Below are positions 9,001 to 31,578 of a stretch of 64,000 nt of DNA, in pieces. Source of the DNA: Eledone cirrhosa. Its lineage: Eukaryota. A program made the translations under genes and the position numbers. The notes beneath the pieces are model-generated. The model was not told the origin of the DNA. It saw nothing but the letters and a program-made list of their open reading frames with translations, and ran no database searches. Each line of letters starts with the position of its first letter. Positions within the stretch are counted from its first letter, which is position 1. The DNA is taken from the NCBI GenBank assembly GCA_964016885.1, contig OZ024765.1, forward strand, positions 1,240,001 to 1,304,000. Reading direction: 5' to 3'.

Positions 9001-12000
9001 CTTATAAAGAACTAGAATTATTTAATTCGATGGAAATAGTCCTGTATATGCTATATTTAATGGAGAAATGTTTTCTACAGGACTAAAACTCATTAATTTG
9101 AGGTGTATTAGTAGTGTATATGCAAAATGTAATACAGAAATGGCTTCTACAGGAGTGAAACTCATAAATATGATGGGTATTATTAGATTATATGCCATAT
9201 TTAATACAGAAATGTCTTCTGAAGGACTAGAACTCATTAATTTGAATCAAATAGTAGTATATATGCAATATTTATTACAGTAATGGCTTTTAAAGGACTG
9301 AAATTGATTAATTCTGAGGGTATTAGAAGATTATATGCCATATTTAATACGGAAATGGCTCCTAAAGGACTAAAACTATTTAATTTGAATCGAATAGTAG
9401 TGTATATGCAATATTTAATACAGAAATGGCTTCTACAAGACTGAAACTCATTAATATGAGGGGTATTAGTAGTATATATGCCATATTTAATACGGAAATT
9501 GCTTCTAAATGAAGAGAACTCTTTAATTCGATGGAAATAGTCGTGTATATGCAATATTTAATAGAGAAATGGCTTCTACTGCACTAAAACTCATTAATTT
9601 GATGGAAATAGTAGTGTATATGCAATATTTAATACAGAAATGGCTTCTACAGCACTAAAACTCATTAATATGAGGGGTATTTATAGATTATATGCCATAT
9701 TTAATACATAAATGGCTTATAAAGAACTAGAATTATTTAATTCGATGGAAATAGTCCTGTATATGCTATATTTAATGGATAAATGCCTTCTACAGGACTA
9801 AAACTCATTAATTTGAGGGGTATTAGTAGTGTATATGCAAAATGTAATACAGAAATGGCTTCTACAGGAGTGAAACTCATAAATATGATGGGTATTATTA
9901 GATTATATGCCATATTTAATACAGAAATGTCTTCTGAAGGACTAGAACTCATTAATTTGAATCAAATAGTAGTATATATGCAATATTTATTAGAGTAATG
10001 GCTTCTACAGGACTGAAACTGATTAATTCTGAGGGTATTAGAAGATTATATGCCATATTTAATACGGAAATGGCTCCTAAAGGACTTAAACTATTTAATT
10101 TGAATCGAATAGTAGTATATATGCAATATTTAATACAGAAATGGCTTCTACAAGACTGAAACTCATTAATATGAGGGGTATTAGTAGTATATATGCCATA
10201 TTTAATACGGAAATTGCTTCTAAATGAAGAGAACTCTTTAATTCGATGGAAATAGTCGTGTATATGCAATATTTAATAGAGAAATGGCTTCTACTGCACT
10301 AAAACTCATTAATTTGATGGAAATAGTAGTGTATATGCAATATTTAATACAGAAATGGCTTCTACAGCACTAAAACTCATTAATATGAGGAGTATTTATA
10401 GATTATATGCCATATTTAATACATAAATGGCTTATAAAGAACTAGAATTATTTAATTCGATGGAAATAGTCCTGTATATGCTATATTTAATGAAGAAATG
10501 CCTTCTACAGGACTAAAACTCATTAATTTGAGGTGTATTAGTAGTGTATATGCAAAATGTAATACAGAAATGGCTTCTACAGGAGTGAAACTCATAAATA
10601 TGATGGGTATTATTAGATTATATGCCATATTTAATACAGAAATGTCTTCTGAAGGACTGGAACGCATTAATTTGAATCAAATAGTAGTATATATGCAATA
10701 TTTATTACAGTAATGGCTTTTAAAGGACTGAAATTGATTAATTCTAAGGGTATTAGAAGATTATATGCCATATTTAATACGGAAATGGCTCCTAAAGGAC
10801 TAAAACTATTTAATTTGAATCGAATAGTAGTGTATATGCAATATTTAATACAGAAATGGCTTCTACAAGACTGAAACTCATTAATATGAGGGGTATTAGT
10901 AGTATATATGCCATATTTAATACGGAAATTGCTTCTAAATGAAGAGAACTCTTTAATTTGATGGAAATAGTCGTGTATATGCAATATTTAATAGAGAAAT
11001 GGCTTCTACTGCACTAAGACTCATTAATTTGATGGAAATAGTAGTGTATATGCAATATTTAATACAGAAATGGCTTCTACAGCACTAAAACTCATTAATA
11101 TGAGGGGTATTTATAGATTATATGCCATATTTAATACATAAATGGCTTATAAAGAACTAGAATTATTTAATTCGATGGAAATAGTCCTGTATATGCTATA
11201 TTTAATGGATAAATGCCTTCTACAGGACTAAAACTCATTAATTTGAGGGGTATTAGTAGTGTATATGCAAAATGTAATACAGAAATGGCTTCTACAGGAG
11301 TGAAACTCATAAATATGATGGGTATTATTAGATTATATGCCATATTTAATACAGAAATGTCTTCTGAAGGACTAGAACTCATTAATTTGAATCAAATAGT
11401 AGTATATATGCAATATTTATTAGAGTAATGGCTTCTACAGGACTGAAACTGATTAATTCTGAGGGTATTAGAAGATTATATGCCATATTTAATACGGAAA
11501 TGGCTCCTAAAGGACTAAAACTATTTAATTTGAATCGAATAGTAGTGTATATGCAATATTTAATACAGAAATGGCTTCTACAAGACTGAAACTCATTAAT
11601 ATGAGGGGTATTAGTAGTATATATGCCATATTTAATACGGAAATTGCTTCTAAATGAAGAGAACTCTTTAATTCGATGGAAATCGTCGTGTATATGCAAT
11701 ATTTAATAGAGAAATGGCTTCTACTGCACTAAAACTCCTTAATTTGATGGAAATAGTAGTGTATATGCAATATTTAATACAGAAATGGCTTCTACAGCAC
11801 TAAAACTCATTAATATGAGGGGTATTTATAGATTATATGCCATATTTAATACATAAATGGCTTATAAAGAACTAGAATTATTTAATTCGATGGAAATAGT
11901 CCTGTATATGCTATATTTAATGGAGAAATGCCTTCTACAGGACTAAAACTCATTAATTTGAGGGGTATTAGTAGTGTATATGCAAAATGTAATACAGAAA

Positions 12001-15000
12001 TGGCTTCTACAGGAGTGAAACTCATAAATATGATGGGTATTATTAGATTATATGCCATATTTAATACAGAAATGTCTTCTGAAGGACTAGAACTCATTAA
12101 TTTGAATCAAATAGTAGTATATATGCAATATTTATTACAGTAATGGCTTTTAAAGGACTGAAATTGATTAATTCTGAGGGTATTAGAAGATTATATGCCA
12201 TATTTAATACGGAAATGGCTCCTAAAGGACTAAAACTATTTAATTTGAATCGAATAGTAGTGTATATGCAATATTTAATACAGAAATGGCTTCTACAAGA
12301 CTGAAACTCATTAATATGAGGGGTATTAGTAGTATATATGCCATATTTAATACGGAAATTGCTTCTAAATGAAGAGAACTCTTTAATTCGATGGAAATCG
12401 TCGTTTATATGCAATATTTAATAGAGAAATGGCTTCTACTGCACTAAAACTCCTTAATTTGATGGAAATAGTAGTGTATATGCAATATTTAATACAGAAA
12501 TGGCTTCTACAGCACTAAAACTCATTAATATGAGGGGTATTTATAGATTATATGCCATATTTAATACATAAATGGCTTATAAAGAACAAAAATTATTTAA
12601 TTCGATGGAAATAGTCCTGTATATGCTATATTTAATGGAGAAATGCCTTCTACAGGACTAAAACTCATTAATTTGAGGTGTATTAGTAGTGTATATGCAA
12701 AATGTAATACAGAAATGGCTTCTACAGGAGTGAAACTCATAAATATGATGGGTATTATTAGATTATATGCCATATTTAATACAGAAATGTCTTCTGAAGG
12801 ACTAGAACTCATTAATTTGAATCAAATAGTAGTATATATGCAATATTTATTACAGTAATGGCTTTTACAGGACTGAAACTGATTAATTCTGAGGGTATTA
12901 GAAGATTATATGCCATATTTAATACGGAAATGGCTCCTAAAGGACTAAAACTATTTAATTTGAATCGAATAGTAGTGTATATGCAATATTTAATACAGAA
13001 ATGGCTTCTACAAGACTGAAACTCATTAATATGAGGGGTATTAGTAGTATATATGCCATATTTAATACGGAAATTGCTTCTAAATGAAGAGAACTCTTTA
13101 ATTCGATGGAAATAGTCGTGTATATGCAATATTTAATAGAGAAATGGCTTCTACTGCACTAAAACTCATTAATTTGATGGAAATAGTAGTGTATATGCAA
13201 TATTTAATACAGAAATGGCTTCTACAGCACTAAAACTCATTAATATGAGGGGTATTTATAGATTATATGCCATATTTAATACATAAATGGCTTATAAAGA
13301 ACTAGAATTATTTAATTTGATGGAAATAGTCCTGTATATGCTATATTTAATGGAGAAATGCCTTCTACAGGACTAAAACTCATTAATTTGAGGGGTATTA
13401 GTAGTGTATATGCAAAATGTAATACAGAAATGGCTTCTACAGGAGTGAAACTCATAAATATGATGGGTATTATTAGATTATATGCCATATTTAATACAGA
13501 AATGTCTTCTGAAGGACTAGAACTCATTAATTTGAATCAAATATTAGTATATATGCAATATTTATTACAGTAATGGCTTTTACAGGACTGAAACTGATTA
13601 ATTCTGAGGGTATTAGAAGATTATATGCCATATTTAATACGGAAATGGCTCCTAAAGGACTAAAACTATTTAATTTGAATCGAATAGTAGTGTATATGCA
13701 ATATTTAATACAGAAATGGCTTCTAGAAGACTGAAACTCATTAATATGAGGGGTATTAGTAGTATATATGCCATATTTAATACGGAAATTGCTTCTAAAT
13801 GAAGAGAACTCTTTAATTCGATGGAAATAGTCGTGTATATTCAATATTTAATAGAGAAATGGCTTCTACTGCACTAAAACTCATTAATTTGATGGAAATA
13901 GTAGTGTATATGCAATATTTAATACAGAAATGGCTTCTACAGCACTAAAACTCATTAATATGAGGGGTATTTATAGATTATATGCCATATTTAATACATA
14001 AATGGCTTATAAAGAACTAGAATTATTTAATTTGATGGAAATAGTCCTGTATATGCTATATTTAATGGAGAAATGCCTTCTACAGGACTAAAACTCATTA
14101 ATTTGAGGGGTATTAGTAGTGTATATGCAAAATGTAATACAGAAATGGCTTCTACAGGAGTGAAACTCATAAATATGATGGGTATTATTAGATTATATGC
14201 CATATTTAATACAGAAATGTCTTCTGAAGGACTAGAACTCATTAATTTGAATCAAATAGTAGTATATATGCAATATTTATTACAGTAATGGCTTTTACAG
14301 GACTGAAATTGATTAATTCTGAGGGTATTAGAAGATTATATGCCATATTTAATACGGAAATGGCTCCTAAAGGACTAAAACTATTTAATTTGAATCGAAT
14401 TGTAGTGTATATGCAATATTTAATACAGAAATGGCTTCTACAAGACTGAAACTCATTAATATGAGGGATATTAGTAGTATATATGCCATATTTAATACGG
14501 AAATTGCTTCTAAATGAAGAGAACTCTTTAATTCGATGGAAATAGTCGTGTATATGCAATATTTAATAGAGAAATGGCTTCTACTGCACTAAAACTCATT
14601 AATTTGATGGAAATAGTATTGTATATGCAATATTTAATACAGAAATGGCTTCTACAGCACTAAAACTCATTAATATGAGGGGTATTTATAGATTATATGC
14701 CATATTTAATACATAAATGGCTTATAAAGAACTAGAATTATTTAATTCGATGGAAATAGTCCTGTATATGCTATATTTAATGGAGAAATGCCTTCTACAG
14801 GACTAAAACTCATTAATTTGAGGTGTATTAGTAGTGTGTATGCAAAATGTAATACAGAAATGGCTTCTACAGGAGTGAAACTCATAAATATGATGGGTAT
14901 TATTAGATTATATGCCACATTTAACACAGAAATGTCTTCTGAAGGACTAGAACTCATTAATTTGAATCAAATAGTAGTATATATGCAATATTTATTATAG

Positions 15001-16125
15001 TAATGGCTTTTACAGGACTGAAATTGATTAATTCTGAGGGTATTAGAAGATTATATGCCATATTTAATACGGAAATGGCTCCTAAAGGACTAAAACTATT
15101 TAATTTGAATCGAATAGTAGTGTATATGCAATATTTAATACAGAAATGGCTTCTACAAGACTGAAACTCATTAATATGAAGGGTATTAGTAGTATATATG
15201 CCATATTTAATACGGAAATTGCTTCTAAATGAAGAGAACTCTTTAATTCGATGGAAATAGTCGTGTATATTTAATAGAGAAATGGCTTCTACTGCACTAA
15301 AACTCATTAATTTGATGGAAATAGTAGTGTATATGCAATATTTAATACAGAAATGGCTTCTACAGCACTAAAACTCATTAATATGAGGGGTATTTATAGA
15401 TTATATGCCATATTTAATACATAAATGGCTTATAAAGAACTAGAATTATTTAATTCGATGGAAATAGTCCTGTATATGCTATATTTAATGGAGAAATGCC
15501 TTCTACAGGACTAAAACTCATTAATTTGAGGGGTATTAGTAGTGTATATGCAAAATGTAATACAGAAATGGCTTCTACAGGAGTGAAACTCATAAATATG
15601 ATGGGTATTATTAGATTATATGCCATATTTAATACAGAAATGTCTTCTGAAGGACTAGAACTCATTAATTTGAATCAAATAGTAGTATATATGCAATATT
15701 TATTACAGTAATGACTTTTACAGGACTGAAACTGATTAATTGTGAGGGTATTAGAAGATTATATGCCATATTTAATACAGAAATGGCTCCTAAAGGACTA
15801 AAACTATTTAATTTGAATCGAATAGTAGTGTATATGCAATATTTAATACAGAAATGGCTTCTACAAGACTGAAACTCATTAATATGAGGGGTATTAGTAG
15901 TATATATGCCATATTTAATACGGAAATTGCTTCTAAATGAAGAGAACTCTTTAATTCGATGGAAATCGTCGTTTATATGCAATATTTAATAGAGAAATGG
16001 CTTCTACTGCACTAAAACTCATTAATTTGATGGAAATAGTAGTGTATATGCAATATTTAATACAGAAATGGCTTCTACAGCACTAAAACTCATTAATATG
16101 AGGGGTATTTATTGATTATATGCCA
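1..16125. repeat. Satellite DNA array: 715-bp higher-order repeat (10 monomers of 71/72 bp), about 22.5 copies, running off the window start
   Basis: Near-identical sequence recurs every 715 bp (ORF-track hits at 6162, 6877, 7592, 8307...). Each unit splits into ten related monomers (atggcttctacaggactaaaactcattaat...tatatgcaatatttaatacagaa); 5x72 + 5x71 = 715. The array ends abruptly at ...tatgcca. Confidence 0.97.
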
Positions 16126-16266
16126 GGTTTATTTTTCAACATGCAAGATTTCACAGCCCTGGCATCAATTCTTCATAGGCTGACCAAGATACTCTCATGG
16201 AATGACCAAATGAGGTTTATTTTTCAACATGCAAGATTTCACAGCCCTAGCATCACTCCTTCATAG

Positions 16267-17012
16267 TGAGCCTATGAACTTTTAACCTACCTTCGTATAT
16301 GTAAACAATGTATTTATTTAATATACAAATAATTACTATTGCTACAGTTAAAAAATGTACAAAAAATACTTTAAATTCAGTTTTTAATTCATGCAACAAT
16401 TGTGTCAATAGTTAAAGAAATTCGAAATCATTTTTGCACCCATTTTTGTGATTAAGTAAAGACGGAGTTATCGTTCTTGAGATTTCGGCTCGGAGAAATT
16501 TAAGGAACTGATGTCGCTTAATCGCCAAATCATTTACCTGCCCCGTTGCATCATGGGAGGGTAATGGCTGCCTTTTAACTTTTATACCACGGCAAACTTT
16601 TTAATATCTTTCTCGCCAAAATGTTCTAATTATTTACTTATATGAAACAAGGAACAAGATGCTGCGAAAGAAACTAAAGAATCTGCCATCGTTTAAAAAA
16701 TAAAAGGCAGCCATTACCCTCCCATGATGCAACGGGGCAAGTAAATGATTTAGCGATTTAGCGACATCAGTTCCTCAAATTTCTCCGAGCCGAAATCTCA
16801 AGAACGATAACTCCGTCTTTACTTAATCGCAAAAATGGGTGCAAAAATGATTTCGAATTTCTTTAACTATTGACACAATTGTTGCATGAATTAAAAACTG
16901 AATTTAAAGTATTTTTTGTACATTTTTTAACTGTAGCCATAGTAATTATTTGTATATTAAATAAATACATTGTTTACATATACGTAGGTAGGCTTAAAAG
17001 TTCATAGGCTCA
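16267..17012. repeat. Palindrome core P1 (~320-bp inverted arms, ~110-bp spacer)
   Basis: tgagcctatgaac...gggtaatggctgcctttta is followed, after a spacer (~16585-16693), by its reverse complement taaaaggcagccattaccc...gttcataggctca. Confidence 0.95.
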
Positions 17013-17543
17013 CTATGAATGAGTGATGCTAGGGCTGTGAAATCTTGTATGTTGAAAAATAAACCTCATTTGGTCATTCCATGAGATTATCTTGGTCAAC
17101 CTATGAAGGAGTGATGCTAGGGCTGTGAAATCTTGCATGTTGAAAAGTAAACCTCATTTGGTCATTCCATGAGAGTATCCTGGTCAGCCTATGAAGGAGT
17201 GATGCTAGAGCTGTGAAATCTTGCATGTTGAAAAATAAACCCCATTTGGTCATTCCATGAGAGTATCTTGGTAAGCCTATGAAGGAGTGATGCTAGAGCT
17301 GTGAAATCTTGCATGTTGTAAAATAAACCCCATTTGGTCATTCCATGAGAGTAACCTGGTCAGCCTATGAAGGAGTGATGCTAGAGCTGTGAAATCTAGC
17401 ATGTTGAAATATAAACCTCATTTGGTCATTCCATGAGGGTATCTTGGTCAGCCTATGAAGGAATGATGCTAGAGCTGTGAAATCTTGCATGTTGAAAAAT
17501 AAACCCTCATTTGGTCATTCCATGAGAGTATCCTGGTCAACCT
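17013..17543 (-). repeat. 87/88-bp tandem repeat array (reverse orientation, ~6 copies)
   Basis: Reverse complement of the catgcaagatttcacagctctagcatcactccttcataggctgaccaagatactctcatggaatgaccaaatg unit. Confidence 0.92.
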
Positions 17544-17626
17544 AAACACACACACATAGCTATATATATATGTATATGTATGTATATATATATGTATATA
17601 TATATTTATATGTATATATGTATGTA

Positions 17627-17668
<42 letters not shown>

Positions 17669-17712
17669 CGTATATATATTTGTGTGTGTGTTTGTGTGTG
17701 ACTGTGTGTGTT

Positions 17713-18200
17713 ATGTGGGTCTCAATATGTAAACTAAACGACTAACACTGATTTCAGAAAATCAGTGTTAGTCGATTAGAAAAATCATCAACTTCTGCGA
17801 CCCTTTCTATCTCGGACCTTAAAGTATCCCTACAAAATCTCAATTAATGATATGTATAATTGTGAAAGTTATCAAGAAAGCAACTTTGGAAAGTGAAAGG
17901 TAAGATTTTACAAAATAGTAAGTTGAATGAGTTGTTCCCCTTAGATGAAAGACACTAAAACGAAGAGTCTACTGAATGCTAGAAATGGCAGGCACTGAAA
18001 TATTAATAATAATGATAGTTTTAGTGGTCAAACAACCCTCAAATATGGCCATATTCAACAGTTTAACCTAGCATATCTCACTAAACTGATGAAAACCCTC
18101 TTCAGCGGTTACTAATACTAGAAATGGCGACTAAATATACCTCAGATGACAGAGAAGAGACACTGGAAGTATTTAAAACAAATTCAATGATATATATAAT
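17713..18200 (+). mobile_element. Terminal module A of the fold-back element, with a subterminal hairpin
   Basis: Starts atgtgggtctcaatatgtaaactaaacgac next to (TA)n/(TG)n. Hairpin cgactaacactgattt...aaatcagtgttagtcg at ~17739-17774. Other copies at 22288-22785 (-), 29001-29478 (+) and 30780-30945 (-). Confidence 0.85.
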
Positions 18201-21012
18201 CACTCCTTCATAAGCTGACCAAGATACTCTCATGGAATGACCAAATAAGGTTTATTTTTCAACATGCAAGATTTCACAGCTCTAGCATCACTCCTTGATA
18301 GGCTAACCAAGATACTCTCATGGAATGACCAAATGGGGTTATTTTTCAACATGCAAGATTTCACAGCTCTAGCATCACTCCTTCATAGGTTGACCAAGAT
18401 ACTCTCATGGAATGACCAAATGAGGTTTCTTTTTCAACATGCAAGATTTCACAGCTCTAGCATCACTCCTTCATAGGCCGACCAAGATACTCTCATGAAA
18501 TGACCAAATGGGGTTATTTTTCAACATGCAAGATTTCACAGCTCTAGCTTCACACCTTCATAGGCTGACCAAGATACTCTCATGCAATGACCAAATGGGG
18601 TTATTTTTCAACATGCAAGATTTCACAGCTCTAGCATCACACCTGCATAGGCTGACCAAGGTACTCTCATGGAAGGACCAAATGAGGTTTCTTTTTCAAC
18701 ATGCAAGATTTCACAGCTCTAGCATCACTCCTTCATAGGCTGACCAAGATACTCTCATGGAATGACCAAATGGGGTTATTTTTCAACATGCAAGATTTCA
18801 CAGCTCTAGCATCACTCCTTCATAGTTTGACCAAGATACTCTCATGGAATGACCAAATGAGGTTTCTTTTTCAACATGCAAGATTTCACAGCTCTAGCAT
18901 CACTCCTTCATAGGCCGACCAAGATACTCTCATGAAATGACCAAATGGGGTTATTTTTCAACATGCAAGATTTCACAGCTCTAGCTTCACACCTTCATAG
19001 GCTGACCAAGATACTCTCATGCAATGACCAAATGGGGTTATTTTTCAACATGCAAGATTTCACAGCTCTAGCATCACACCTGCATAGGCTGACCAAGGTA
19101 CTCTCATGGAAGGACCAAATGAGGTTTCTTTTTCAACATGCAAGATTTCACAGCTCTAGCATCACTCCTTCATAGGCTGACCAAGATACTCTCATGGAAT
19201 GACCAAATGGGGTTATTTTTCAACATGCAAGATTTCACAGCTCTAGCATCACTCCTTCATAGTTTGACCAAGATACTCTCATGGAATGACCAAATGAGGT
19301 TTCTTTTTCAACATGCAAGATTTCACAGCTCTAGCATCACTCCTTCATAGGCCGACCAAGATACTCTCATGAAATGACCAAATGGGGTTATTTTTCAACA
19401 TGCAAGATTTCACAGCTCTAGCTTCACACCTTCATAGGCTGACCAAGATACTCTCATGCAATGACCAAATGGGGTTATTTTTCAACATGCAAGATTTCAC
19501 AGCTCTAGCATCACACCTGCATAGGCTGACCAAGGTACTCTCATGGAAGGGCCAAATGAGGTTTCTTTTTCAACATGCAAGATTTCACAGCTCTAGCATC
19601 ACTCCTTCATAGGCTGACCAAGATACTCTCATGGAATGACCAAATGGGGTTATTTTTCAACATGCAAGATTTCACAGCTCTAGCATCACTCCTTCATAGG
19701 TTGACCAAGATACTCTCATGAAATGACCAAATGAAGTTTCTTTTTCAACATGCAAGATTTCACAGCTCTAGCATCACTCCTTCATAGGCCGACCAAGATA
19801 CTCTCATGAAATGACCAAATGGGGTTATTTTTCAACATGCAAGATTTCACAGCTCTAGCTTCACACCTTCATAGTTTGACCAAGATACTCTCATGGAATG
19901 ACCAAATGAGGTTTCTTTTTCAACATGCAAGATTTCACAGCTCTAGCATCACTCCTTCATAGGCCGACCAAGATACTCTCATGAAATGACCAAATGGGGT
20001 TATTTTTCAACATGCAAGATTTCACAGCTCTAGCTTCACACCTTCATAGGCTGACCAAGATACTCTCATGCAATGACCAAATGGGGTTATTTTTCAACAT
20101 GCAAGATTTCACAGCTCTAGCATCACACCTGCATAGGCTGACCAAGGTACTCTCATGGAAGGGCCAAATGAGGTTTCTTTTTCAACATGCAAGATTTCAC
20201 AGCTCTAGCATCACTCCTTCATAGGCTGACCAAGATACTCTCATGGAATGACCAAATGGGGTTATTTTTCAACATGCAAGATTTCACAGCTCTAGCATCA
20301 CTCCTTCATAGGTTGACCAAGATACTCTCATGAAATGACCAAATGAAGTTTCTTTTTCAACATGCAAGATTTCACAGCTCTAGCATCACTCCTTCATAGG
20401 CCGACCAAGATACTCTCATGAAATGACCAAATGGGGTTATTTTTCAACATGCAAGATTTCACAGCTCTAGCTTCACACCTTCATAGGCTGACCAAGATAC
20501 TCTCATGGAATGACCAAATGAGGTTTATTTTTCAACATGCAAGATTTCACAGCTCTAGCATCACTCTTTCATAGGCTGACCAAGATACTCTCATGGAATG
20601 ACCAAATGGGGTTATTTTTCAACATGCAAGATTTCACAGCTCTAGCATCACACCTTCATAGGCTGACCAAGATACTCTCATGGAATGACCAAATGAGGTT
20701 TATTTTTCAACATGCAAGATTTCACAGCTCTAGCATCACTCCTTCATAGGCTGACCAAGATACTCTCATGGAATGACCAAATGGGGTTATTTTTCAACAT
20801 GCAAGATTTCACAGCTCTAGCATCACACCTTCATAGGCTGACCAAGATACTCTCATGGAATGACCAAATGAGGTTTATTTTTCAACATGCAAGATTTCAC
20901 AGCTCTAGCATCACTCCTTCATAGGCTGACCAAGTAACTCTCATGGAATGACCAAATTAGGTTTATTTTTCAATATGCAGGATTTCACAGCCCTAGCATC
21001 AATCCTTCATAG
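18200..21012 (+). repeat. 87/88-bp tandem array (~32 copies) with 437-bp (5-mer) and 612-bp (7-mer) higher-order periodicity
   Basis: Variant monomers recur at 437-bp spacing (ORF hits 18508/18945/19382) and at 612 bp (19382/19994). Confidence 0.93.
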
Positions 21013-21759
21013 TGAGCCTATGAACTTTTAAGCCTACCTTCGATTATGTAAACAATGTATTTATTTAATATACAAATAATTACTATGGCTACAGTTAAAA
21101 AATGTACAAAAAATACTTTAAATTCAGTTTTTAATTCATGCAACAATTGTGTCAATAGTTAAAGAAATTCGAAATAATTTTTGCACCCATTTTTGCGATT
21201 AAGTAAAGACGGAGTTATCGTTCTTGAGATTTCGGCTCGGAGAAATTTGAGGAACTGATGTCGCTAAATCGCCAAATCATTTACCTGCCCCGTTGCATCA
21301 TGGGAGGGTAATGGCTGCCTTTTATTTTTTATACCACGGCAAACTTTTTAATATCTTTCTCGCCAAAATGTTCTAATTATTTACTTATATGAAACAAGGA
21401 ACAAGATGCTGCGAAAGAAACTAAAGAATCTGCCATCGTTTAAAAAATAAAAGGCAGCCATTACCCTCCCATGATGCAACGGGGCAGGTAAATGATTTGG
21501 CGATTTAGCGACATCAGTTCCTCAAATTTCTCCGAGCCGAAATCTCAAGAACGATAACTCCGTCTTTACTTAATCGCAAAAATGGGTGCAAAAATGATTT
21601 CGAATTTCTTTAACTATTGACACAATTGTTGCATGAATTAAAAACTGAATTTAAAGTATTTTTTGTACATTTTTTAACTGTAGCCATAGTAATTATTTGT
21701 ATATTAAATAAATACATTGTTTACATATACGTAGGTAGGCTTAAAAGTTCATAGGCTCA
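21013..21759. repeat. Palindrome core P2 (axis of the 9-kb symmetry)
   Basis: Same arms and same spacer orientation as P1; spacer ~21333-21439. Confidence 0.95.
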
Positions 21760-22287
21760 CTATGAATGAGTGATGCTAGGGCTGTGAAATCTTGTATGTT
21801 GAAAAATAAACCTCATTTGGTCATTCCATGAGATTATCTTGGTCAACCTATGAAGGAGTGATGCTAGGGCTGTGAAATCTTGCATGTTGAAAAATAAACC
21901 TCATTTGGTCATTCCATGAAATTATCTTGGTCAGCCTATGAATGAGTGATGCTAGGGCTGTGAAATCTTGCATGTTGAAAAATAAACCTCATTTGGTCAT
22001 TCCATGAGTGTTTCTTGGTCAGCCTATGAAGGAGTGATGCTAGAGTTGTGAAATCTTGCATGTTGAAAAATAACCCCATTTGGTCATTCCATGAGAGTAT
22101 CTTGGTCAGCCTATGAAGGAGTGATGCTAGAGCTGTGAAATCTTGCATGTTGAAAAATAAACCTCATTTGGTCATTCCATGAGAGTATCTTGGTCAGCCT
22201 ATGAAGGTGTGAAGCTAGAGCTGTGAAATCTTGCATGTTGAAAAATAACCCCATTTGGTCATTCCATGAGAGTATCTTGGTCAGCCT
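21760..22287 (-). repeat. 87/88-bp tandem array, reverse (~6 copies)
   Basis: Reverse complement of the R monomer. Confidence 0.92.
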
Positions 22288-22828
22288 ACCCTCGTGTATT
22301 ATATATATCATTGAATTTGTTTTAAATACTTCCAGTATCTCTTCTCTGTGATCTGAGGTATATTTAGTTGCCATTTCTAGTATTAGTAACCGCTGAAGAG
22401 GGTTTTCATCAGTTTAGTGAGATATGCTAGGTTAAACTGTTGAATATGGCCATATTTGAGGGTTGTTTGACCACTAAAACTATCATTATTATTAATATTT
22501 TAGTGCCTGCCATTTCTAGCATTCAGTAGACTCTTCGTTTTAGTGTCTTTCATCTAAGGGGAATAACTCATTCAACTTACTATTTTGTAAAATCTTACCT
22601 TTCACTTTCTTAAGTTGCTTTCTTGATAACTTTCACAATTATACAGGTTATTAATTGAGATTTTGTAGGGATACTTTAAGGTCCCAGCTAGAAAGGGTCG
22701 CAGAAGTTGATGATTTTTCTAGTCGACTAACACTGATTTTCTGAAATCAGTATTAGTCGTTTAGTTTACATATTGAGACCCATATATCACACACACACAA
22801 ATATATATACGTATATATATACATTTAC

Positions 22829-22874
<46 letters not shown>

Positions 22875-22881
22875 ATATAAA

Positions 22882-22928
<47 letters not shown>

Positions 22929-22943
22929 ATATATACATATAAA

Positions 22944-22990
<47 letters not shown>

Positions 22991-23005
22991 ATATATACAT
23001 ATAAA

Positions 23006-23043
<38 letters not shown>

Positions 23044-23178
23044 CATATATACATATAAATATATATACATACATATATACATATAAATATATATATACAT
23101 ATATATATACATACATATACATATATATATATATATACATATATATATACATACATATACATATATATGTGTGTGTGT

Positions 23179-23976
23179 TTAGGTTGACCAGGATACTCTC
23201 ATGGAATGACCAAATGAGGTTTATTTTTCAACATGCAAGATTTCACATCCCTAGCATCACTCCTTCATAGGCTGACCAAGATACTCTCATGGAATGAGGA
23301 AATGACGTTTATTTTTCAATCATGCAAGATTTCACAGCCCTAGCATCACTCCTTCATAGGCTGACCAAGATACTCTCATGGAATGACCAAATAAGGTTTA
23401 TATTTCAACATGCTAGATTTCACAGCTCTAGCATTACTCCTTCATAGGCTGACCAAGATACTCTCATGGAATGACCAAATAAGGTTTATATTTCAACATG
23501 CTAGATTTCACAGCTCTAGCATCACTCCTTCATAGGCTGACCAGGATACTCTCATGGAATGACCAAATGAGGTTTATTTTTCAACATGCAAGATTTCACA
23601 TCCCTAGCATCACTCCTTCATAGGCTGACCAAGATACTCTCATGGAATGAGGAAATGACGTTTATTTTTCAATCATGCAAGATTTCACAGCCCTAGCATC
23701 ACTCCTTCATAGGCTGACCAAGATACTCTCATGGAATGACCAAATAAGGTTTATATTTCAACATGCTAGATTTCACAGCTCTAGCATTACTCCTTCATAG
23801 GCTGACCAAGATACTCTCATGGAATGACCAAATAAGGTTTATATTTCAACATGCTAGATTTCACAGCTCTAGCATTACTCCTTCATAGGCTGACCAAGAT
23901 ACTCTCATGGAATGACCAAATGAGGTTTATTTTTCAACATGCAGGATTTCACAGCCCTTGCATCACTCCTTCATAG
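23179..23976 (+). repeat. 87-89-bp tandem array (~9 copies, ~352-bp 4-mer duplication)
   Basis: R monomer; the variant gaggaaatgacg recurs at ~23297 and ~23649. Confidence 0.9.
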
Positions 23977-24724
23977 TGAGCCTATGAACTTTTAAGCCTA
24001 CCTTCGATTATGTAAACAATGTATTTATTTAATATACAAATAATTACTATGGCTACAGTTAAAAAATGTACAAAAAATACTTTAAATTCAGTTTTTAATT
24101 CATGCAACAATTGTGTCAATAGTTAAAGAAATTCGAAATCGTTTTTGCACCCATTTTTGCGATTAAGTAAAGACGGAGTTATCGTTCTTGAGATTTCGGC
24201 TCGGAGAAATTTAAGGAACTGATGTCGCTAAATCGCCAAATCATTTACCTGCCCCGTTGCATCATGGGAGGGTAATGGCTGCCTTTTATTTTTTAAAGGA
24301 TGGCAGATTCTTTAGTTTCTTTCGCAGCATCTTGTTCCTTGTTTCATATAAGTAAATAATTAGAACATTTTGGCGAGAAAGATATTAAAAAGTTTGCCGT
24401 GGTATAAAAAATAAAAGGCAGCCATTACCCTCCCATGGTGCAACGGGGCAGGTAAATGATTTGGCGATTTAGCGACATCAGTTCCTCAAATTTCTCCGAG
24501 CCGAAATCTCAAGAACGATAACTCCGTCTTTACTTATTCGCAAAAATGGGTGCAAAAACGATTTCGAATTTCTTTAACTATTGACACAATTGTTGCATGA
24601 ATTAAAAACTGAATTGAAAGTATTTTTTGTACATTTTTGTAACTGTAGCCATAGTAATTATTTGTATATTAAATAAATACATTGTTTACATATACGAAGG
24701 TAGGCTTAAAAGTTCATAGGCTCA
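23977..24724. repeat. Palindrome core P3 (spacer inverted relative to P1/P2)
   Basis: Same arms; spacer gatggcagattctttag...aagtttgccgtggta is the reverse complement of the P1/P2 spacer. Confidence 0.95.
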
Positions 24725-25375
24725 CTATGAAGGAGTGATGCTAGGGATGTGAAATCTTGCATGTTGAAAAATAAACCTCATTTGGTCATTCCATGAGAGT
24801 ATCTTGGTCAGCCTATGAAGGAGTGATGCTAGGGCTGTGAAATCCTGCATGTTGAAAAATAAACCTCATTTGGTCATTCCATGAGAGTATCTTGGTCAGC
24901 CTATGAAGGTGTGATGCTAGAGCTGTGAAATCTTGCACGTTGAAAAATAACCCCATTTGGTCATTCCATGAGAGTATCTTGGTCAGCCTATGAAGGTGTG
25001 ATGCTAGAGCTGTGAAATCTTGCACGTTGAAAAATAACCCCATTTGGTCGTTCCATGAGAGTATCTTGGTCAGCCTATGAAGGAGTGATGCTAGAGCTGT
25101 GAAATCTTGCATGATTTAACTTGGTGTCCTTGAAATATGTATAATGAAATAAATATGGTTTTATAAATATAGTTTCCATTTGTTAATATATCGTATTTTT
25201 ACTCCAAATATTTGTTGAGTGCTTTATATCAGTTATAAAAATATTTGCTTGTTGTATCCCAACAATTTAAATAGAACTTTTACATATATATATATATATA
25301 TAAAGAAAAAAAGATGAAATCGAAAATGCAACTGGAGTCGTATTTAAAAAAAATATATATATATTTATTTGGTTC

Positions 25376-25411
25376 CTTTACCGGTTTCGCAGTTCTTCTG
25401 CTTTTCAAAAG
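25376..25411 (-). ncRNA. Minimal type I hammerhead ribozyme motif, U3/A8 variant
   Basis: Minus strand reads ctt-TTGAAAA-gcag aagaa ctgc-GAAA-ccgg-TA-aag: short helix I, 4-bp helix II, palindromic ACCGGT helix III. It lies downstream of the PLE ORF on the same strand. Confidence 0.75.
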
Positions 25412-25583
25412 TAGAGTTGAGATGGAGGGTCTGTGGTTTTTCTCACATCTGGTTGGTCTTTGAATCTTACTTGTTTTATATGGAAAAAGTGGCTCGAAAT
25501 ACCAGTTTTTTCGAGAAGTAATTTGATTGGTTGGTCAATAATTATAATAAGGGAGGGAGTTGTGTGTGTGTGTATATGGGTGT

Positions 25584-25617
<34 letters not shown>

Positions 25618-26027
25618 AGTATGTTAAGATGGAGAGAATATATATTTTGTGTGTGTATATATGTGTGTAGGAAAGTGATTCTATTAGTAGAAATGGGGGA
25701 GGGGAGTTGTGTGTGTGAGTGTGGGGGTTGTTATGTGTGTGTATGGGTGTTATGTGTGTGGGAGTATGGTTAGCATGTTAAGATGAAGAGAATATATATA
25801 TATATATTGTGTGTGTGTGTGTAGGAAAATGATTCCTTTAGTCGGAATATTTTTGAATGAACATATTTTCCTTACTTATTCGTATTTGTTCTGTTGTATT
25901 GTCAGTGCAAACGTATGTTAAGGTTTATTTAGTTCAGGTTTTTTATTTTCTAAAGTAGAAGGTGTTATGTGTGTGTGTATGTGTCTGTTTGGATGGTTAG
26001 CACATTATGGTGTTGACATAATGTATA

Positions 26028-28305
26028 TTAAACCATATTTAATGTTGGTCTATATTTTTGAATAAACATATTTTCCTTATTTATTCGTATTTGTTCTGTT
26101 GTATTGTTAGCGCAAAGGTAAAATGGGAAGACTTGGAATTTGGGTGTCTTATTACTTGCGCATATGTCTAGATGTGCGCTTAGTGGTATCTGTCTCGTGG
26201 TTGGATCTCGTAATTGTTGGCGATGAACTGTCATTCTGTTTCTGAGTGTGAGTTTAGTTTGTCCTATATAATCTTCATTGCATCCTTTACATTTAATGGC
26301 ATAAATTAGATTTTTTGATGAGCAAGTGAAGTGATTTTTTACAGTAAAATTTTGTCCTGATTTAAATGTATACGTGTTGCCTTCAATGAGGTGAGTGCAG
26401 GTTCCACAATTAGAGCGACCACATTTTTTTACACTTGGTTGTGGGTTTGTGGTAGGTAATTTGGCATTGGTGAGTAATGTTTTCAGTGATTTTGGTTGTC
26501 TTTTGATTTTGATTATTTTGTGTGTTTCAAGGGCTTTTTTCATTCTTGGGTTTTGTTTTAGTAGTGGGATGTTCTTGTGAATAGTGCTGTAAGCTTCCGC
26601 ATTTCTTGGGTTGTGTGTTGAGATATATGATAGAATATTGGACGTACCTTGAATTTGTTTCTGTTTTCGTAATTCATCAATGCCTATTGCTTTAGCCCTT
26701 TCTATTCCATTATTTATTAGTAATAGTGGGTACTCTCTTTCGAGTAGAATTTCCTTTAATTCTTGAAGTCTTTTATTTCGAGTTTCATAATTGGAGACAA
26801 TTGTGCAAATTCTTCTTGCTAGGTTAAAAGGAATGTTCGTCTTCGTGTGTTTTGGATGGTTGGAGGTGAATAGCAGATATTGTTTGGAATCTGTTGGTTT
26901 GTAGTGTATGTCAGTTTCAATATTTGTGTCTTTTTTTAAGATTAAGATGTCCAGAAATGGGAGTTGATCTTGGCTGTATTCCATTGTGAATTGGATGTGG
27001 TTATTGATGCCATTTATTAAGTTTTTGTGGTTGTTGATGCCGTTTATCAGTTGGTCGAGTGTGTGGGACCAAAGAATGAGACAATCATCCAAGTAGCGTT
27101 TCCAATTCTCTGATAAATATTTGTGGAAGTTCAATCCGTATTTTGATTTGGACTGTTCATATATCTGGACTTCTAAGTATGCCATGACTAAGTTGGCCTA
27201 AGTTGGAGCGGCTTTTGGACCCATCGCAGTCCCCGATATTTGCTTGTAAGTATTGCCATCGAAATCAAAAAAGTTGTTCTGTAAGATGAATTTTAATCCC
27301 TCGGTGATGAAGCTTTTTTCTATTCTGCCAGGTATCTCATTGGGATATTTCTCTAGTCCGAATCCTATTGCTTCTAGTCCGTATTGGTGTGGGATCGTTG
27401 TGTAGAGATTCACTACATCGAAAGACACAATAATAGTGTCGTTGTTGACATGTTTGGGGAGGTGGTTTAAAAGGTCCAGATCGTCTCTTACAAGGCTTGG
27501 TATGTGTTTGAGAATTGGTTTTAGTCGTATGTCTATAAAGTTGCTGTCTGTGTGTTTCACATTGTGGGCCCGCTACAATTGGTCTTAATTTAAGGTCTGT
27601 GGGGTATTGTGTGTTCACGCAGGCTGAGGTGGATTGTTTACAGGCATCGTTAATTATTTTACACTTGTGGATCTTCGGAAGTTCATAAAGGTTGATGGTT
27701 TTGTATTCAAAATGTGTTAAATAATCGCGTTCCTTTTTAGTTAGGTCTTCCTGGTATCGATAAATCAATGTGTTTAATCTGGTCATTGTTTTTGATTGCT
27801 GGTAGTTTTTTACTCTTTCATAGTAATTAGTATTTTGTAAGAGAGAGAGCATAGAACTTTTATATTTTTCAGCCTCCATAATGACAACAGTACTTCCCTT
27901 GTCCGCTTCCTTAATTATAATGTCCGTATTGTTTTTTAGTTCATGGATAATCTCCCATTCCCTTCGACTCGTGTTGGGTTTGGGTTTAGGTTGCGGTAGC
28001 TCATGGTATGGAAAAGTAGCTATGTGGTCACAAAATTTGTCCAGAACTCTGTTTCTACCTTTTGTTGGGTTGTAGCTGCTTTTATTCCGTACAATTGATT
28101 CGTCGTTATTCTCCTTGTCAAAGAATTCCTCTGTGAGACGTAATTTTCTACAGAAGTGTGAGATATCGTCATTTATCTCATTGGGGTTAGAGTATTGTGG
28201 TGCTGGTGTGAATTTCAGTCCTTTGGAGAGAATTTTTACTTGGGCTGAGAGGTTTGTATTTGAAAGGTTGATTATTTTCGGTTTTTCAAAATCGGTTTGT
28301 GCCAC
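26028..28305 (-). pseudogene. PLE reverse transcriptase + GIY-YIG endonuclease, inactivated (frameshift ~27555, in-frame stop ~27198)
   Basis: PLE N-terminal motifs IINLS..LSKGLKFTP and IIIKEADKGSTVVIM; LRPIVAG; RT motifs SFDVVNLYTTIP, YKQISGTAMG, RYLDD and FLDILI; CGRSNCGTC Cys motif; NLIYAIKCKGCNEDYIGQT..LRNRMTVHR (GIY-YIG). Confidence 0.93.
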
Positions 28306-28830
28306 CGGGTGTCGTGAGTCCTGTAGCCTTGGTCTAAAAAATGATTTTTCTGGAATGTTTTTTCAATGGTATTATTATATCTAATGGTATTTCCCCTGTT
28401 GTTGTGTGGTCTTGTATAGAAGTTTCGGACGTATTGAGGTTCGGTTTGTTGATAGTCTGGGTTGTAGATTTTGTTCCTTTGTGTGGGTTGGTATCTACGG
28501 TTTTGGAACAGGCTCTGTGTGGGCAGGGGTCTACGGTTTTGGAATAGGTTTTGATCTGTGAATAAGGTCCTGCCTTGTGTTCGGGGATCTTCGGATTTTG
28601 TTAGTAGGGTTATAGTTTTGTCTATGGTTTCTGGGATTATCGTTATAGTTTTGCTGGGGGTATGTTGGACGTTTTATTACTTTTTTTGTTATTTGTTGTG
28701 CATGTGGTGTGTGAGTTTTAGTCTGTTTTAAAAATGGGTTACCTGTATGTTGTTCATTTTTGAAGTCCATTTCGTAGTTGTTGAACCAGGTGGCGTTTTT
28801 TTCCCATCGCTGGAGGGATGTATATGTATG

Positions 28831-28868
<38 letters not shown>

Positions 28869-29000
28869 CACGTATATATTTAGATATATAACTATGTATA
28901 TACATATATATAACTATGTATATATATAGATATATAATTATTTCTATATATATATATATATATGTAAATGTATATATATATATGTGTGCATGTGTGTATC

Positions 29001-30057
29001 ATGTGGGTCTCAATATGTAAACTAAACAACTAACACCGGTTTCAGAAAAATCATCAACTTCTGCGACCCTTTCTATCTTGGACCTTAAAGTATCCCTACA
29101 AAATCTCAATTAATAATCTGTATAATTGTGAAAGTAATCAAGAAAGCAACTTAGGAAAGTGAAAGGTAAAATTTTACAAAATAGTAAGTTGAATGAGTTG
29201 TTTCCCTTACATGAAAGACACTAAAACGAAGAGTCTACTGAATGCTAGAAATGGCAGCCACTGAAATATTAATAATAATGATAGTTTTAGTGGTCAAACA
29301 ACCTTCAAATATGGCCATATTCAACAGTTTAACCTAGAATATCTCACTAAACTGAAGGAAACCCTCTTCAGCGGTCAAAATACTAGAAATGGCGACTAAA
29401 TATCCCTCAAATCTCAGTGAAGAGACACTGGAAGTATTTAGAACAAATTCAATGATATATATAATATACGAGGGTAGGTTGACCAAGATACTCTCATGGA
29501 ATGACCAAATGAGGTTTATTTTTCAACATGCAAGATTTCACAGCTCTAGCATCACTCCTTCATAGGCTGGCCAAGATACACTCATGGAATGACCAAATGA
29601 GGCTTATTTTTCAACATGCAAGATTTTACAGCTCTAGCATCACTCCTTCATAATCTGACCAAGATACTCTTATGGAATGACCAATTGAGGCTTATTTTTC
29701 AACATGCAAGATTTCACAGCCTTAGCATCACTCCTTCATAGGCTGACCAAGATACTCTCATGGAATGACCAAATGAGGTTTATTTTACAATGCAGTTATT
29801 AATAGAAAGAGGTGAAATTAATGCATGCAAGATTTCAGAGCCCTATCATCATTCCTATGAACTTTTAAGCCTATATACACATATATATATCTATACATAT
29901 ATATACATATATATGTATATATATGTATAGATATATATATGTATATGTACATATATATGTATATATATATGTATAGATATATATATGTATATGTATATAT
30001 ACATATATATATACATATACATATATACATATATATATATATACATATATATGTATA

Positions 30058-30095
<38 letters not shown>

Positions 30096-30945
30096 CATCA
30101 TGGGAGGGTAATGGCTGAATTTTATTATTTAAACTGCGGCAGATTTTTTAATATCTTTCTCGCCACCTTGTCTCTTGTTTTATATAAGTAAATAATTAAA
30201 ACAAATAATTTATTCTCCAACTCCCTTTAATCTTAACATTAAATTTCCGTGGTCCGGTGAGGGGTTAAGGTAAAGCAAAGGTAATCGTTAAACCGGTGTC
30301 ACAATTAATGTTACCCCATTATTCTCCAAACAATGTTGGATATTACGATTATGCTGAAGAGATAAATTTAATATTTTCTTTGGTGGCTTCCTTGGTAGGA
30401 ATAAAGGATATTTTTTCTTACGTTCAAATTCTAGCTGAAGCTAAAGAAATAATTTTATTTAATTATTTATATATATATATCATTTGTATGTTAAAATAAA
30501 GAAAATTATTTTAACATACAAAATATAATATATATATATATATATATATGAGCTCTTGCCATTTCAATAGGTAGCTGAACTCGTCTAGAAACGCAATAGC
30601 TCAGCCGTCGGGTCCCGACTCTTTATAAAATAACCATACTCTACTATACCAAGTATCGAGTACTCCGTTGAGTAGTGGTATCCATCCACAAATACATAAA
30701 ACTTTACATCTTCCAAATATATATAATAAAATAAACAGAGATGATATAAAGCCCTTCACTTTACTTTACTAAATTTTTTACTTGATAACTTTCACAATTA
30801 TACAGATTATTAATTGAGATTTTGTAGGGATACTTTAAGGTCCCAGATAGAAAGAGTCGCAGAAGTTGATGATTTTTCTAGGTTGTCGCTCTTGATTTTT
30901 TCGAAACCAGATTTAGTCGTTTAGTTACATATTGAGACCCACATA
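29001..30945. mobile_element. Older, degenerate member of the A/R/B fold-back family
   Basis: A (29001-29478), ~3.5 R monomers (to ~29790), start of B, (TA)n, a B-end/spacer-like segment (30097-30210) and an inverted partial A' (30780-30945). Flanked by (TA)n on both sides. Confidence 0.75.
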
Positions 30946-31041
30946 ATATATATATATATACATACATACATATATATATATATACCTAAATATATGTGTA
31001 TATATATATATACATAAATATGTGTATATATATATACATAA

Positions 31042-31105
<64 letters not shown>

Positions 31106-31578
31106 ATGTGTGTGTGTATATACGCGAATGGGAAAGCATAAACAAATTGAGCAAGAGACTAGTGTTGTCCCCATGAAAAATCGGGACTTCTGCATTACTG
31201 CATAAGGCCAGATACCTCAGATTCTAGGGGGTTTTAACAATAGGGGCCCTTAATCCTACCACGCTTAATCTTACAGCTCACACTGGGTTCCTCTCATACC
31301 TAGTCTCTCCCTCAATTCGATCATGTTTCACCGTTCCTGTATATAACTATTACACATCCATTGGAGCAGGTTTAGATATAAACGAAAATAAAACAACTAC
31401 AACAACAAATTAGAAATACAGTTTTTCTTGTTATTTACATAAGTTAGCTTCTTGTGGGATGACTGTCCATGTGGACAAGAATAGCTGCCCAAGAACAGGT
31501 GCTCCTATTTAATATAGAGTCCATATATATAATACAGAGTACATGTATAACAATAAAGTATATATATAACAATATACA

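Follow-up and report, generated by a model that had tools for sequence, protein, structure and literature searches.

Several described systems resemble the locus reported here. miDNA4, a Xenopus Tc1/mariner MITE with an internal satellite, likewise carries a tandem array of variable size between its terminal inverted repeats (TIRs), and short shared words have been proposed to drive deletion and expansion (PMC12628747; this and the other articles are cited from excerpts). Tetris of Drosophila virilis is a non-autonomous element with long inverted arms, a satellite-seeding tandem-repeat domain, and rearranged forms, the copies of which show 8-10-bp target duplications (PMC4079207). In plants, the TA-targeting non-autonomous Mutator-like elements MuTAnT and SaTar are long-armed, non-coding, associated with (TA)n tracts, and sometimes organized in linear arrays (PMC4486113, PMC5907723). 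The arrays of the macro-dyad satellites of Tribolium madens reverse at conserved inversion sites with a diverged turn (PMC13081366). In fold-back inverted duplication (PMC3907307), ODIRA (PMC10766183), and arm-to-arm conversion in Y palindromes (PMC3723533), nearly identical arms have been reported around an interrupted inverted repeat that was already present, with a spacer that is asymmetric. Many of these traits recur in the window analyzed here and at related loci of the genome; the window is a stretch of 64,000 nucleotides from Eledone cirrhosa (contig OZ024765.1, positions 1,240,001 to 1,304,000).

Results

Two kinds of transposon debris in a 9-kb mirror structure

The assembled mirror structure contains no assembly gap and is made of two kinds of transposon debris, namely mariner-derived arrays of an 87/88-bp unit (R) and arms of a foldback element (Table 1). 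As put forward in an earlier note on this DNA, three fold-back cores (P1, P2, and P3; 747-748 bp) are linked by R arrays that reverse strand at every core, and the spacer of P3 is inverted relative to those of P1 and P2 (orientation + + -); this inversion is required by the mirror relation of P1 and P3 and hence is no separate fact.

Table 1. Features of the mirror structure and its neighbours (positions in the window)
Positions	Strand	Feature	Remarks
1..16125	+	143-bp satellite	71/72-bp subunits; no similarity to family modules
16126..16251	+	R array	~1.5 copies; truncated by satellite
16252..17027	+	Core P1 (core proper 16267-17012)	mariner TIR, arm B, fusion point 16626/16627, reversed arm B, mariner TIR
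17028..17544	-	R array	6 copies
17545..17707		(CA)n/(TA)n/(TG)n tract	no strand
17708..18198	+	Module A copy 1 (A1)	R junction without mariner TIR remnant
18199..20997	+	R array	32 copies; 5-unit (437-bp) higher-order repeat
20998..21774	+	Core P2 (core proper 21013-21759)	mirror axis; parent arm positions 603-405 fused to 380-603 at 21373/21374
21012..21042	+	mariner MITE terminal inverted repeat	at R/B border
21775..22288	-	R array	6 copies
22289..22294	-	Other mariner TIR, remnant	outer 6 bases kept, 16 bases lost
22295..22790	-	Module A copy 2 (A2)	
22791..23179		(TA)n/(TG)n tract	no strand
23180..23961	+	R array	9 copies; 4-unit (353-bp) repeat
23962..24739	-	Core P3 (core proper 23977-24724)	reversed spacer; fusion point 24362/24363
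24740..25113	-	R array	4.3 copies; stops at Penelope-like element
25114..28800	-	Broken Penelope-like retroelement	GIY-YIG domain; RT-like motifs by eye
29001..30945	+	Unfused relative	A, R x4, TA tract, B, parent arm running outward (X1), partial inverted A; last R unit retains part of undeleted MITE middle

The absence of intervening DNA between the complex and the satellite, also claimed earlier, was confirmed, as R directly abuts the satellite at 16125/16126; the satellite array extends 3.6 kb past the left edge of the window, where an assembly gap marks its start. The satellite was rejected as a source of A, R, or B, to which it shows no similarity, and as an internal repeat of the element, which is at odds with the satellite-family contacts on C26, the scaffold of the window: the five junctions, that at 16125/16126 included, use four different breakpoints, and at their far ends the arrays run into a different satellite, into a TA tract, or into a gap. 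At all five junctions the family lies at the same array end, but the cases are so few and so interrelated that this carries little weight. On the other side of the structure, tblastn found no match to the Penelope-like element at the other family loci searched, leaving a link between this element and the family unsupported. An origin from Penelope-like inverted ends was discarded as well, because an Rfam search of 15500-31500 returned 77 matches at E<=1 with no hammerhead, the matches, which lie on hairpins and TA tracts, being below-threshold miRNAs only, and because one shared spacer motif occurs in 62 places, rather than a per-copy inversion point.

R is a tandem expansion inside a mariner MITE

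The R arrays result from tandem amplification within a mariner MITE of 198 bp, and thousands of reads pass from R into TA-flanked TIRs. An exact pattern for the MITE TIR has 86 matches genome-wide; both TIRs (~30 bp) are present in 17 of the 30 retrieved, and the far-end TA in 13 of these 17, the near TA being part of the search pattern. The MITE in turn combines both termini of a DD34D mariner of 1.25 kb that this genome also carries. Its ends match both ends of ~1.25-kb elements at 5 of 10 loci, one of which (L189) carries a 360-amino acid frame with PF01359 (3e-22), HTH_48, and the 34-residue DD34D spacing. These partners were located via a transposase 5' fragment in the arms of the C23 palindromes described below; the top 30 PF01359 loci yielded a single edge match only. 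The MITE termini resemble the irritans-type TIRs tabulated in PMC4678618.

The MITE lies at a TA between modules A and B. One of its TIRs is short of 16 bases, and about 50 bases are missing from the MITE interior. The shortened TIR is cut to 6 bases at 33 of 34 A/R junctions, so that the copies in the window lack the two intact TIRs expected of a mobile MITE. An exact pattern search for the empty A/B site gave 0 matches, and we therefore infer the insertion at this site from the TIRs.

The cores are fused arms of a foldback element

Each core consists of positions 380-603 of a parent arm and positions 405-603 of a reversed arm, placed back to back. These arms come from a foldback element that is dispersed and non-coding and has a pair of inverted arms of ~620 bp; in the cores, both have lost their outer ~380-400 bp. 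The search for this parent gave 265 candidates, of which 40 were scored, and intact two-armed parents with paired ~620-bp arms were found at C21, C13, C27, C7, and C9. Parent elements measure 1-5.8 kb, have a variable non-coding interior, and lie within TA tracts on at least eight scaffolds; their long arms, variable interior, and dispersal are those of a foldback/long-TIR DNA transposon. Arm fusions free of R occur elsewhere, with another fusion point at L278 and a nearby one at L215. Neither module A nor the innermost 135 bp of B was found in 15 parent interiors. No transposase partner, including a MULE transposase, was found among 25 frames from 20 parent stretches. The parent ends blur into mirrored TA tracts, and the flanks examined for the 8-11-bp target duplication of the Mutator superfamily are such tracts. 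A piggyBac-like terminus in X1 was dismissed, as the similarity runs on past that terminus, and a hAT-like fragment seen by eye inside parent L280 had no Pfam match. The case that the earlier note had set against itself, single TIR elements nested by chance, describes the parent, which is a TIR element, but not the fused arrays, which form a multi-locus family.

The mirror about P2 and its limits

Two pairs of segments mirror each other about P2, 17543-18200 with 22298-22955 (91% identity) and 16351-17323 with 23666-24638 (96% identity). Folding of the P2 centre gives -113.9 kcal/mol (z -24.5), a value equalled by 0 of 200 shuffles. The mirror symmetry claimed earlier for the module order holds, and the (TG)n/R junction is the same on both sides, but the symmetry does not hold for the array sizes and TA tracts, which are unequal between sides, nor for the A1/R junction (18198/18199), which is unlike the A2/R junction. 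The A1/R junction is the sole one of the 34 A/R junctions without a mariner TIR remnant and is likely the switch point of the inverted duplication. A1 and A2 differ at 16 of 491 sites (3.3%), the next copy being 5.2-6.3% away. P1 differs from reversed P3 at 19 of 776 sites (2.45%) and is closer to P2 (1.55%); a single inversion alone is thus insufficient to explain the window. Evidence that arms are homogenized inside cores was weak: 13 of 19 loci exceeded the median, with p=0.08 in a sign test and p=0.009 in a Wilcoxon test, in a comparison whose loci are not independent and from which 6 of 43 cores were left out for short arms.

Spread and polarity of the family

The 62 occurrences of the spacer motif fall on five scaffolds only, with none on C1-C12, and these five scaffolds hold 5 of the 86 MITE TIR matches. 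Among 75 two-armed cores, neighbours share polarity in 40 of 45 pairs, a ratio that overstates the evidence because cores within arrays are not independent; together with the confinement to five scaffolds, it fits direct tandem duplication and not a rolling-hairpin concatemer. For example, 11 consecutive cores at C23:22.13-22.19 Mb are of one polarity, and the window represents one of the rarer inverted cases. Relative to spacer orientation, module A lies beyond the upstream arm 19 times and beyond the downstream arm 20 times. Flanks beyond the TA tract are common to different loci, and the family arrays span 2-55 kb, with monomers that vary in start and content from locus to locus.

Palindromes on scaffold C23

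Six palindromes on scaffold C23, among them those at 3.96, 9.39, 11.80, and 17.60 Mb, have this core or array at their centre. Their arms reach 21 kb (duplications of up to 43 kb), and at every one of the six loci the arms are sisters of each other. Arm divergence is graded from 0% to about 3% around one shared seed, the outer zones being more diverged than the inner; at two loci the inner 8 kb show 0-1 arm differences, yet the centre is asymmetric. Palindrome ends vary between loci.

Discussion

The structure is probably a short array of foldback-transposon remnants that carry 88-bp arrays of mariner origin and are fused to each other by their arms at the cores. It likely spread by tandem duplication and, now and then, by inverted duplication (fold-back or template-switch). 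Inverted duplication, already raised in the earlier note, is supported by the arm-internal fusion joints, the sister arms at C23, and the mirror about P2. The starting point, a non-coding element with ~620-bp inverted arms in TA tracts, is observed, and so are the truncated MITE repeated as R, the arms placed back to back, and the core arrays of one polarity at most loci. The truncation and amplification of the MITE would have taken place on a single occasion, by slippage between short shared words, and a founder core may have arisen by fold-back or by deletion between neighbouring arms. Unequal exchange and segmental duplication would have produced the same-polarity core arrays, whereas the mirror in the window would stem from a single inverted duplication with P2 as its axis, for which the R array at 18198/18199 served as the priming site, and from subsequent exchange among arms.

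A further proposal, which we put forward tentatively, is that the fused-arm core might act as a reusable germ-line seed for hairpin-primed copying, from which 6-21 kb of one flank are re-copied time and again onto the opposite flank, and that, as in ODIRA, inverted extrachromosomal dimers perhaps carry it from one small chromosome to another, which would make this a gene-free, self-symmetrizing palindrome family. Repeated re-copying from the centre predicts the sister arms at six loci, the near-zero inner zones beside an asymmetric centre, and the more diverged outer zones.

That the whole A-R-core-R-A unit is still mobile as a Tetris-like foldback transposon, with three copies nested or side by side, seems unlikely. 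P2 shows the outer, tandem, and inner domain order of Tetris (PMC4079207), the parent is dispersed, and plant TA-targeting MULEs form arrays (PMC5907723), but the core faces the wrong way, as it corresponds to parent arms joined at their cut outer ends. Moreover, flanks beyond A are common to loci, the family is restricted to five scaffolds, no target duplication was seen, and the outer termini are not fixed, as the palindrome ends vary.

The earlier note had proposed a non-coding element of a poxvirus/parvovirus-like family, replicating by rolling-hairpin and integrated as alternating concatemers, a reading we now regard as very unlikely. A mirror concatemer requires alternation, whereas neighbouring cores mostly share polarity, 11 of them in series on C23; per-arm array sizes and higher-order repeats are unequal, palindrome ends are not constant between loci, and all modules trace to known kinds of DNA transposons. 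A Pfam scan for a Rep, helicase, recombinase, or transposase found none in 76 frames (51 + 25) from family and parent loci, although a helper elsewhere is possible. What rolling-hairpin replication would account for is the strong hairpin at each core, the spacer in both orientations relative to A (19 versus 20), and the six C23 palindromes with sister arms.

An assembly or read artefact is a highly improbable source of the mirror. The C23 palindrome at 17.6 Mb would fit it, with arms that differ at a single site over 6.2 kb and a gap at its end, but the mirrored parts of the window have diverged by 2-3% and differ in array structure, no gap lies inside, and the same junctions occur on other scaffolds; in addition, raw short reads from two other samples reach depths of 12 and 15 at 16626, beside the P1 fusion point, from which we infer that they cross it. 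Finally, a Helitron/Helentron-type rolling-circle element giving head-to-tail arrays and microsatellites is scarcely conceivable, since the same-polarity arrays, the TA/TG tracts, and the tandem-repeat links reviewed in PMC12628747 are set against ~620-bp terminal inverted arms in the parent, no Rep/helicase frame at family loci, and array monomers that vary by locus in start and content.

No description of the family was found in the octopus and cephalopod literature on transposable elements, palindromes, and satellites, including excerpts of PMC13282606, although the MITE or its foldback host may already be listed in some octopus repeat library. Each step of the path from mariner to palindrome is already known singly, and one genome here retains all intermediates, from autonomous mariner to MITE, tandem array, foldback cargo, and finally palindromic-monomer arrays and giant palindromes. 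If supported by reads, the C23 series would offer a natural test set for fold-back re-copying versus arm-to-arm gene conversion outside sex chromosomes.

Compared with miDNA4 as presented in PMC12628747, the unit here derives from subterminal DNA of the mariner itself, both 5' and 3', a TIR is broken, and another element spreads the array as its cargo. In contrast to Tetris (PMC4079207), no target duplications were seen for this family, the repeat domain goes back to the insertion of a mariner MITE, and each palindromic core is a fusion of cut outer arm ends. Relative to MuTAnT and SaTar, as portrayed in PMC4486113 and PMC5907723, the parent differs in that it yielded neither a MULE transposase nor a G-rich terminus nor a 9-bp duplication. 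The Tribolium madens macro-dyads form megabase (peri)centromeric blocks (PMC13081366), whereas the arrays here are 2-55 kb of transposon debris. The fold-back, ODIRA, and Y-palindrome cases cited above (PMC3907307, PMC10766183, PMC3723533) are, as reported there, single events or gene-bearing palindromes, whereas here one repeat seed centres palindromes at at least six loci.

Results

The assembled sequence of the window (G000:C26:1,240,001-1,304,000, assembly size 3.0 Gb) bears out the module order given in an earlier note on this DNA: satellite, 1.5 forward units of the 87/88-bp repeat R, the fold-back core P1, six reversed R, a TA tract, flanking module A, 32 forward R and core P2, followed by six reversed R, A reversed, a TA tract, nine forward R, core P3 reversed and 4.3 reversed R. 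The mirror symmetry about P2 also claimed there holds for the modules but not as a literal mirror, since the arms differ in sequence and array structure. The two A copies, A1 and A2, differ at 16 of 491 positions, P1 and reversed P3 at 19 of 776, and P1 and P2 at 12 of 776. Higher-order repeats comprise five units in the 32-copy array and four in the nine-copy array. This divergence of mirrored parts, together with the unlike array repeats, argues against a fold-back read chimera. In short raw reads from two further samples that carry the same species name, depth beside the P1 fusion point is 12 and 15; about as many reads stop there, as expected of reads from unfused parents. Of the window's three A copies, A1 and A2 are the most alike, and one A|R junction, at 18198/18199, is atypical. 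Within the family of loci with fused-arm cores and R arrays, the window counts among the inverted cases, and this junction is a plausible switch point of the inversion; that P1 is nearer P2 shows either subsequent exchange or a history less simple than one inversion.

Each core consists of two arms of a dispersed, non-coding foldback element (the parent), without their outer ends, fused back to back. On C13, R-less relatives of the core arm B, its spacer and the outward continuation X1 occur as inverted pairs, and a search with one R-less relative gave 265 candidates, 40 of which were scored, on C7, C12, C13, C15, C21, C27 and C1700. What matched were ~620-bp arms; the elements that carry them are non-coding, 1-5.8 kb long and set within TA tracts, into mirrored forms of which the parent ends blur. 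The window core joins arm positions 380-603 to reversed positions 405-603. Such fusions recur, since L278 is a complete parent dimer with a different fusion point (positions 313/323), L215 contains a core that lacks R and was joined close to the point seen in the window, and L281 contains the complementary inner fold-back. No transposase partner was found in 25 frames from 20 parent stretches, nor module A in 15 parent interiors.

By the tests run, R belongs to the class of mariner-derived MITEs. In reads and contigs of this organism aligned to P1, R continues into TA-flanked termini on either side, as it does in a second organism, where most of arm B is missing. A 28-base terminus pattern had 86 exact matches over large scaffolds; in 17 of 30 fetched matches both TIRs lay at most 1.5 kb apart (112-539 bp, five of them 198 bp), 13 of the 17 with the far-end TA. 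The first 118 and last 80 bases of the MITE both matched the ends of ~1.25-kb elements at five of ten loci, one matched at four and neither at one, and one such element has a 360-aa frame with PF01359 (3e-22), HTH_48 and DD34D spacing. The MITE termini are similar to irritans-type TIRs among those tabulated in PMC4678618. In family copies, the 45 bases at the start of the apparent core are the end of the MITE, the other TIR is reduced to six bases in 33 of 34 A|R junctions, and ~50 middle bases are lost; R is thus the product of tandem expansion within a single damaged MITE, whose deletion junction had 1,242 exact matches, the first 100 of which were listed.

The 143-bp satellite has no sequence in common with the family modules. 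Its five contacts with the family on C26 lie at four different breakpoints, and the contact in the window looks like truncation inside a satellite-rich region. Four of the five 143-bp arrays on C26 (L054, L039, L053) have another satellite, of short unit length, adjoining their 5' end, in one case across a gap.

Features located in the window and elsewhere in the assembly
Location	Strand	Feature	Remark
Window 17734-17779, 22724-22764		Small internal inverted duplication in module A	Absent from copy at 29001
Window 25114-28800	minus	Broken Penelope-like retroelement, GIY-YIG domain	Right boundary of 9-kb structure
Window 30545-30760		Piece of very abundant dispersed repeat	2,553 candidates
Window 33000-64000		Many unrelated minisatellites, long TA-rich arrays	Periods e.g. 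40, 47, 48, 51, 61, 108, 135 bp
G000:C26:1,083,927-1,093,764		112-copy R array (9.8 kb)	Within five-unit tandem array
L189:1678-2908 (G000:C8)		Full-length mariner	Open 360-aa transposase frame; ends match MITE
L275:2532-3659 (C27)		Multi-finger C2H2 gene	Beside parent copies
L277:3667-4047 (C27)		Ligand-gated ion-channel exon	Beside parent copies
G000:C23:9,372,366-9,415,571		43-kb palindrome on family core	No gap; L193-L196, L175, L176
G000:C23:17,593,877-17,608,604		Palindrome, 1 mismatch in 6.2 kb	Right arm stops at assembly gap
L042:1-2823		Palindrome, unrelated centre	Beside family copy
L045:359-4436		Palindrome, unrelated centre	Beside family copy
L041:7810-10000		Palindrome, unrelated centre	Beside family copy
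G000:C24:3,542,353-3,545,532		Palindrome, unrelated centre	Beside family copy

Discussion

The spacer motif has 62 exact matches, all on C13 (5), C22 (4), C23 (19), C24 (18) and C26 (16). Rolling-hairpin replication of the poxvirus or parvovirus kind, the origin first proposed for the structure, failed the tests run: of 45 pairs of neighbours at most 15 kb apart, drawn from the 75 two-armed cores of the fetched stretches, 40 have like polarity (11 consecutive cores at C23:22.13-22.19 Mb), and 51 scanned frames from family loci, 48 of them drawn from 119 candidates, contained no Rep, helicase, recombinase or transposase. The frames at these loci encode LINE RT, a GIY-YIG domain and incidental host domains. 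Since a palindromic monomer repeated directly already reverses R at every core, no special mode of replication has to be assumed. Beyond the TA tract, loci have flanks in common, often LINE fragments, as in segmental duplication. Some of the 1-4 kb palindromes beside family copies carry sequence that distantly (80-85%) matches a portion of arm B.

Larger mirrors on C23 are centred on a core or an R array. Four have arms of ~21, 17, 13 and no less than 8.7 kb, a fifth has an arm that stops after 6.2 kb at a gap, and another has two cores. We lean towards fold-back or template-switch re-copying primed within an interrupted inverted repeat that was already there, as in fold-back inverted duplication (PMC3907307) and ODIRA (PMC10766183). 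In a shared 1.28-kb block, arms are sisters at all six loci with both arms recovered, two further loci yielding one arm only; differences are 0, 0, 0, 3, 18 and 29 within loci and 15-51 between them, and at the locus with 29 the raw count for one arm is lower (23) against another locus. Multi-kilobase arm conversion, of the arm-to-arm kind treated in PMC3723533, is a possible but less probable source of this likeness. The 9.39 Mb palindrome has no substitutions in its inner 8.3 kb and three in the outer 7.5 kb (outside microsatellites and the arm end), that at 11.80 Mb one in the inner 7.8 kb and about twenty in the outer part; complex TA tracts are unlike between arms and the central 2 kb are 2.4-2.9% asymmetric. 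Assembly artefact is the least probable origin of these mirrors but a possible one for the near-identical palindromes, most of all for that whose right arm stops at a gap. Outer ends vary by locus, two lying within short dispersed repeats, and their comparison between loci revealed no shared terminus.

The separate parts are already known; no description of their combination and of the palindrome series was found in the literature searched on octopus and cephalopod genomes, transposable elements, satellites and palindromes. The whole unit was also considered as a Tetris-like mobile unit, and this was rejected because flanks are common to several loci and the palindromes' outer ends differ. The structure in the window works like Tetris and miDNA4, whose repeat arrays likewise arose within DNA transposons, and it looks like a small macro-dyad satellite.
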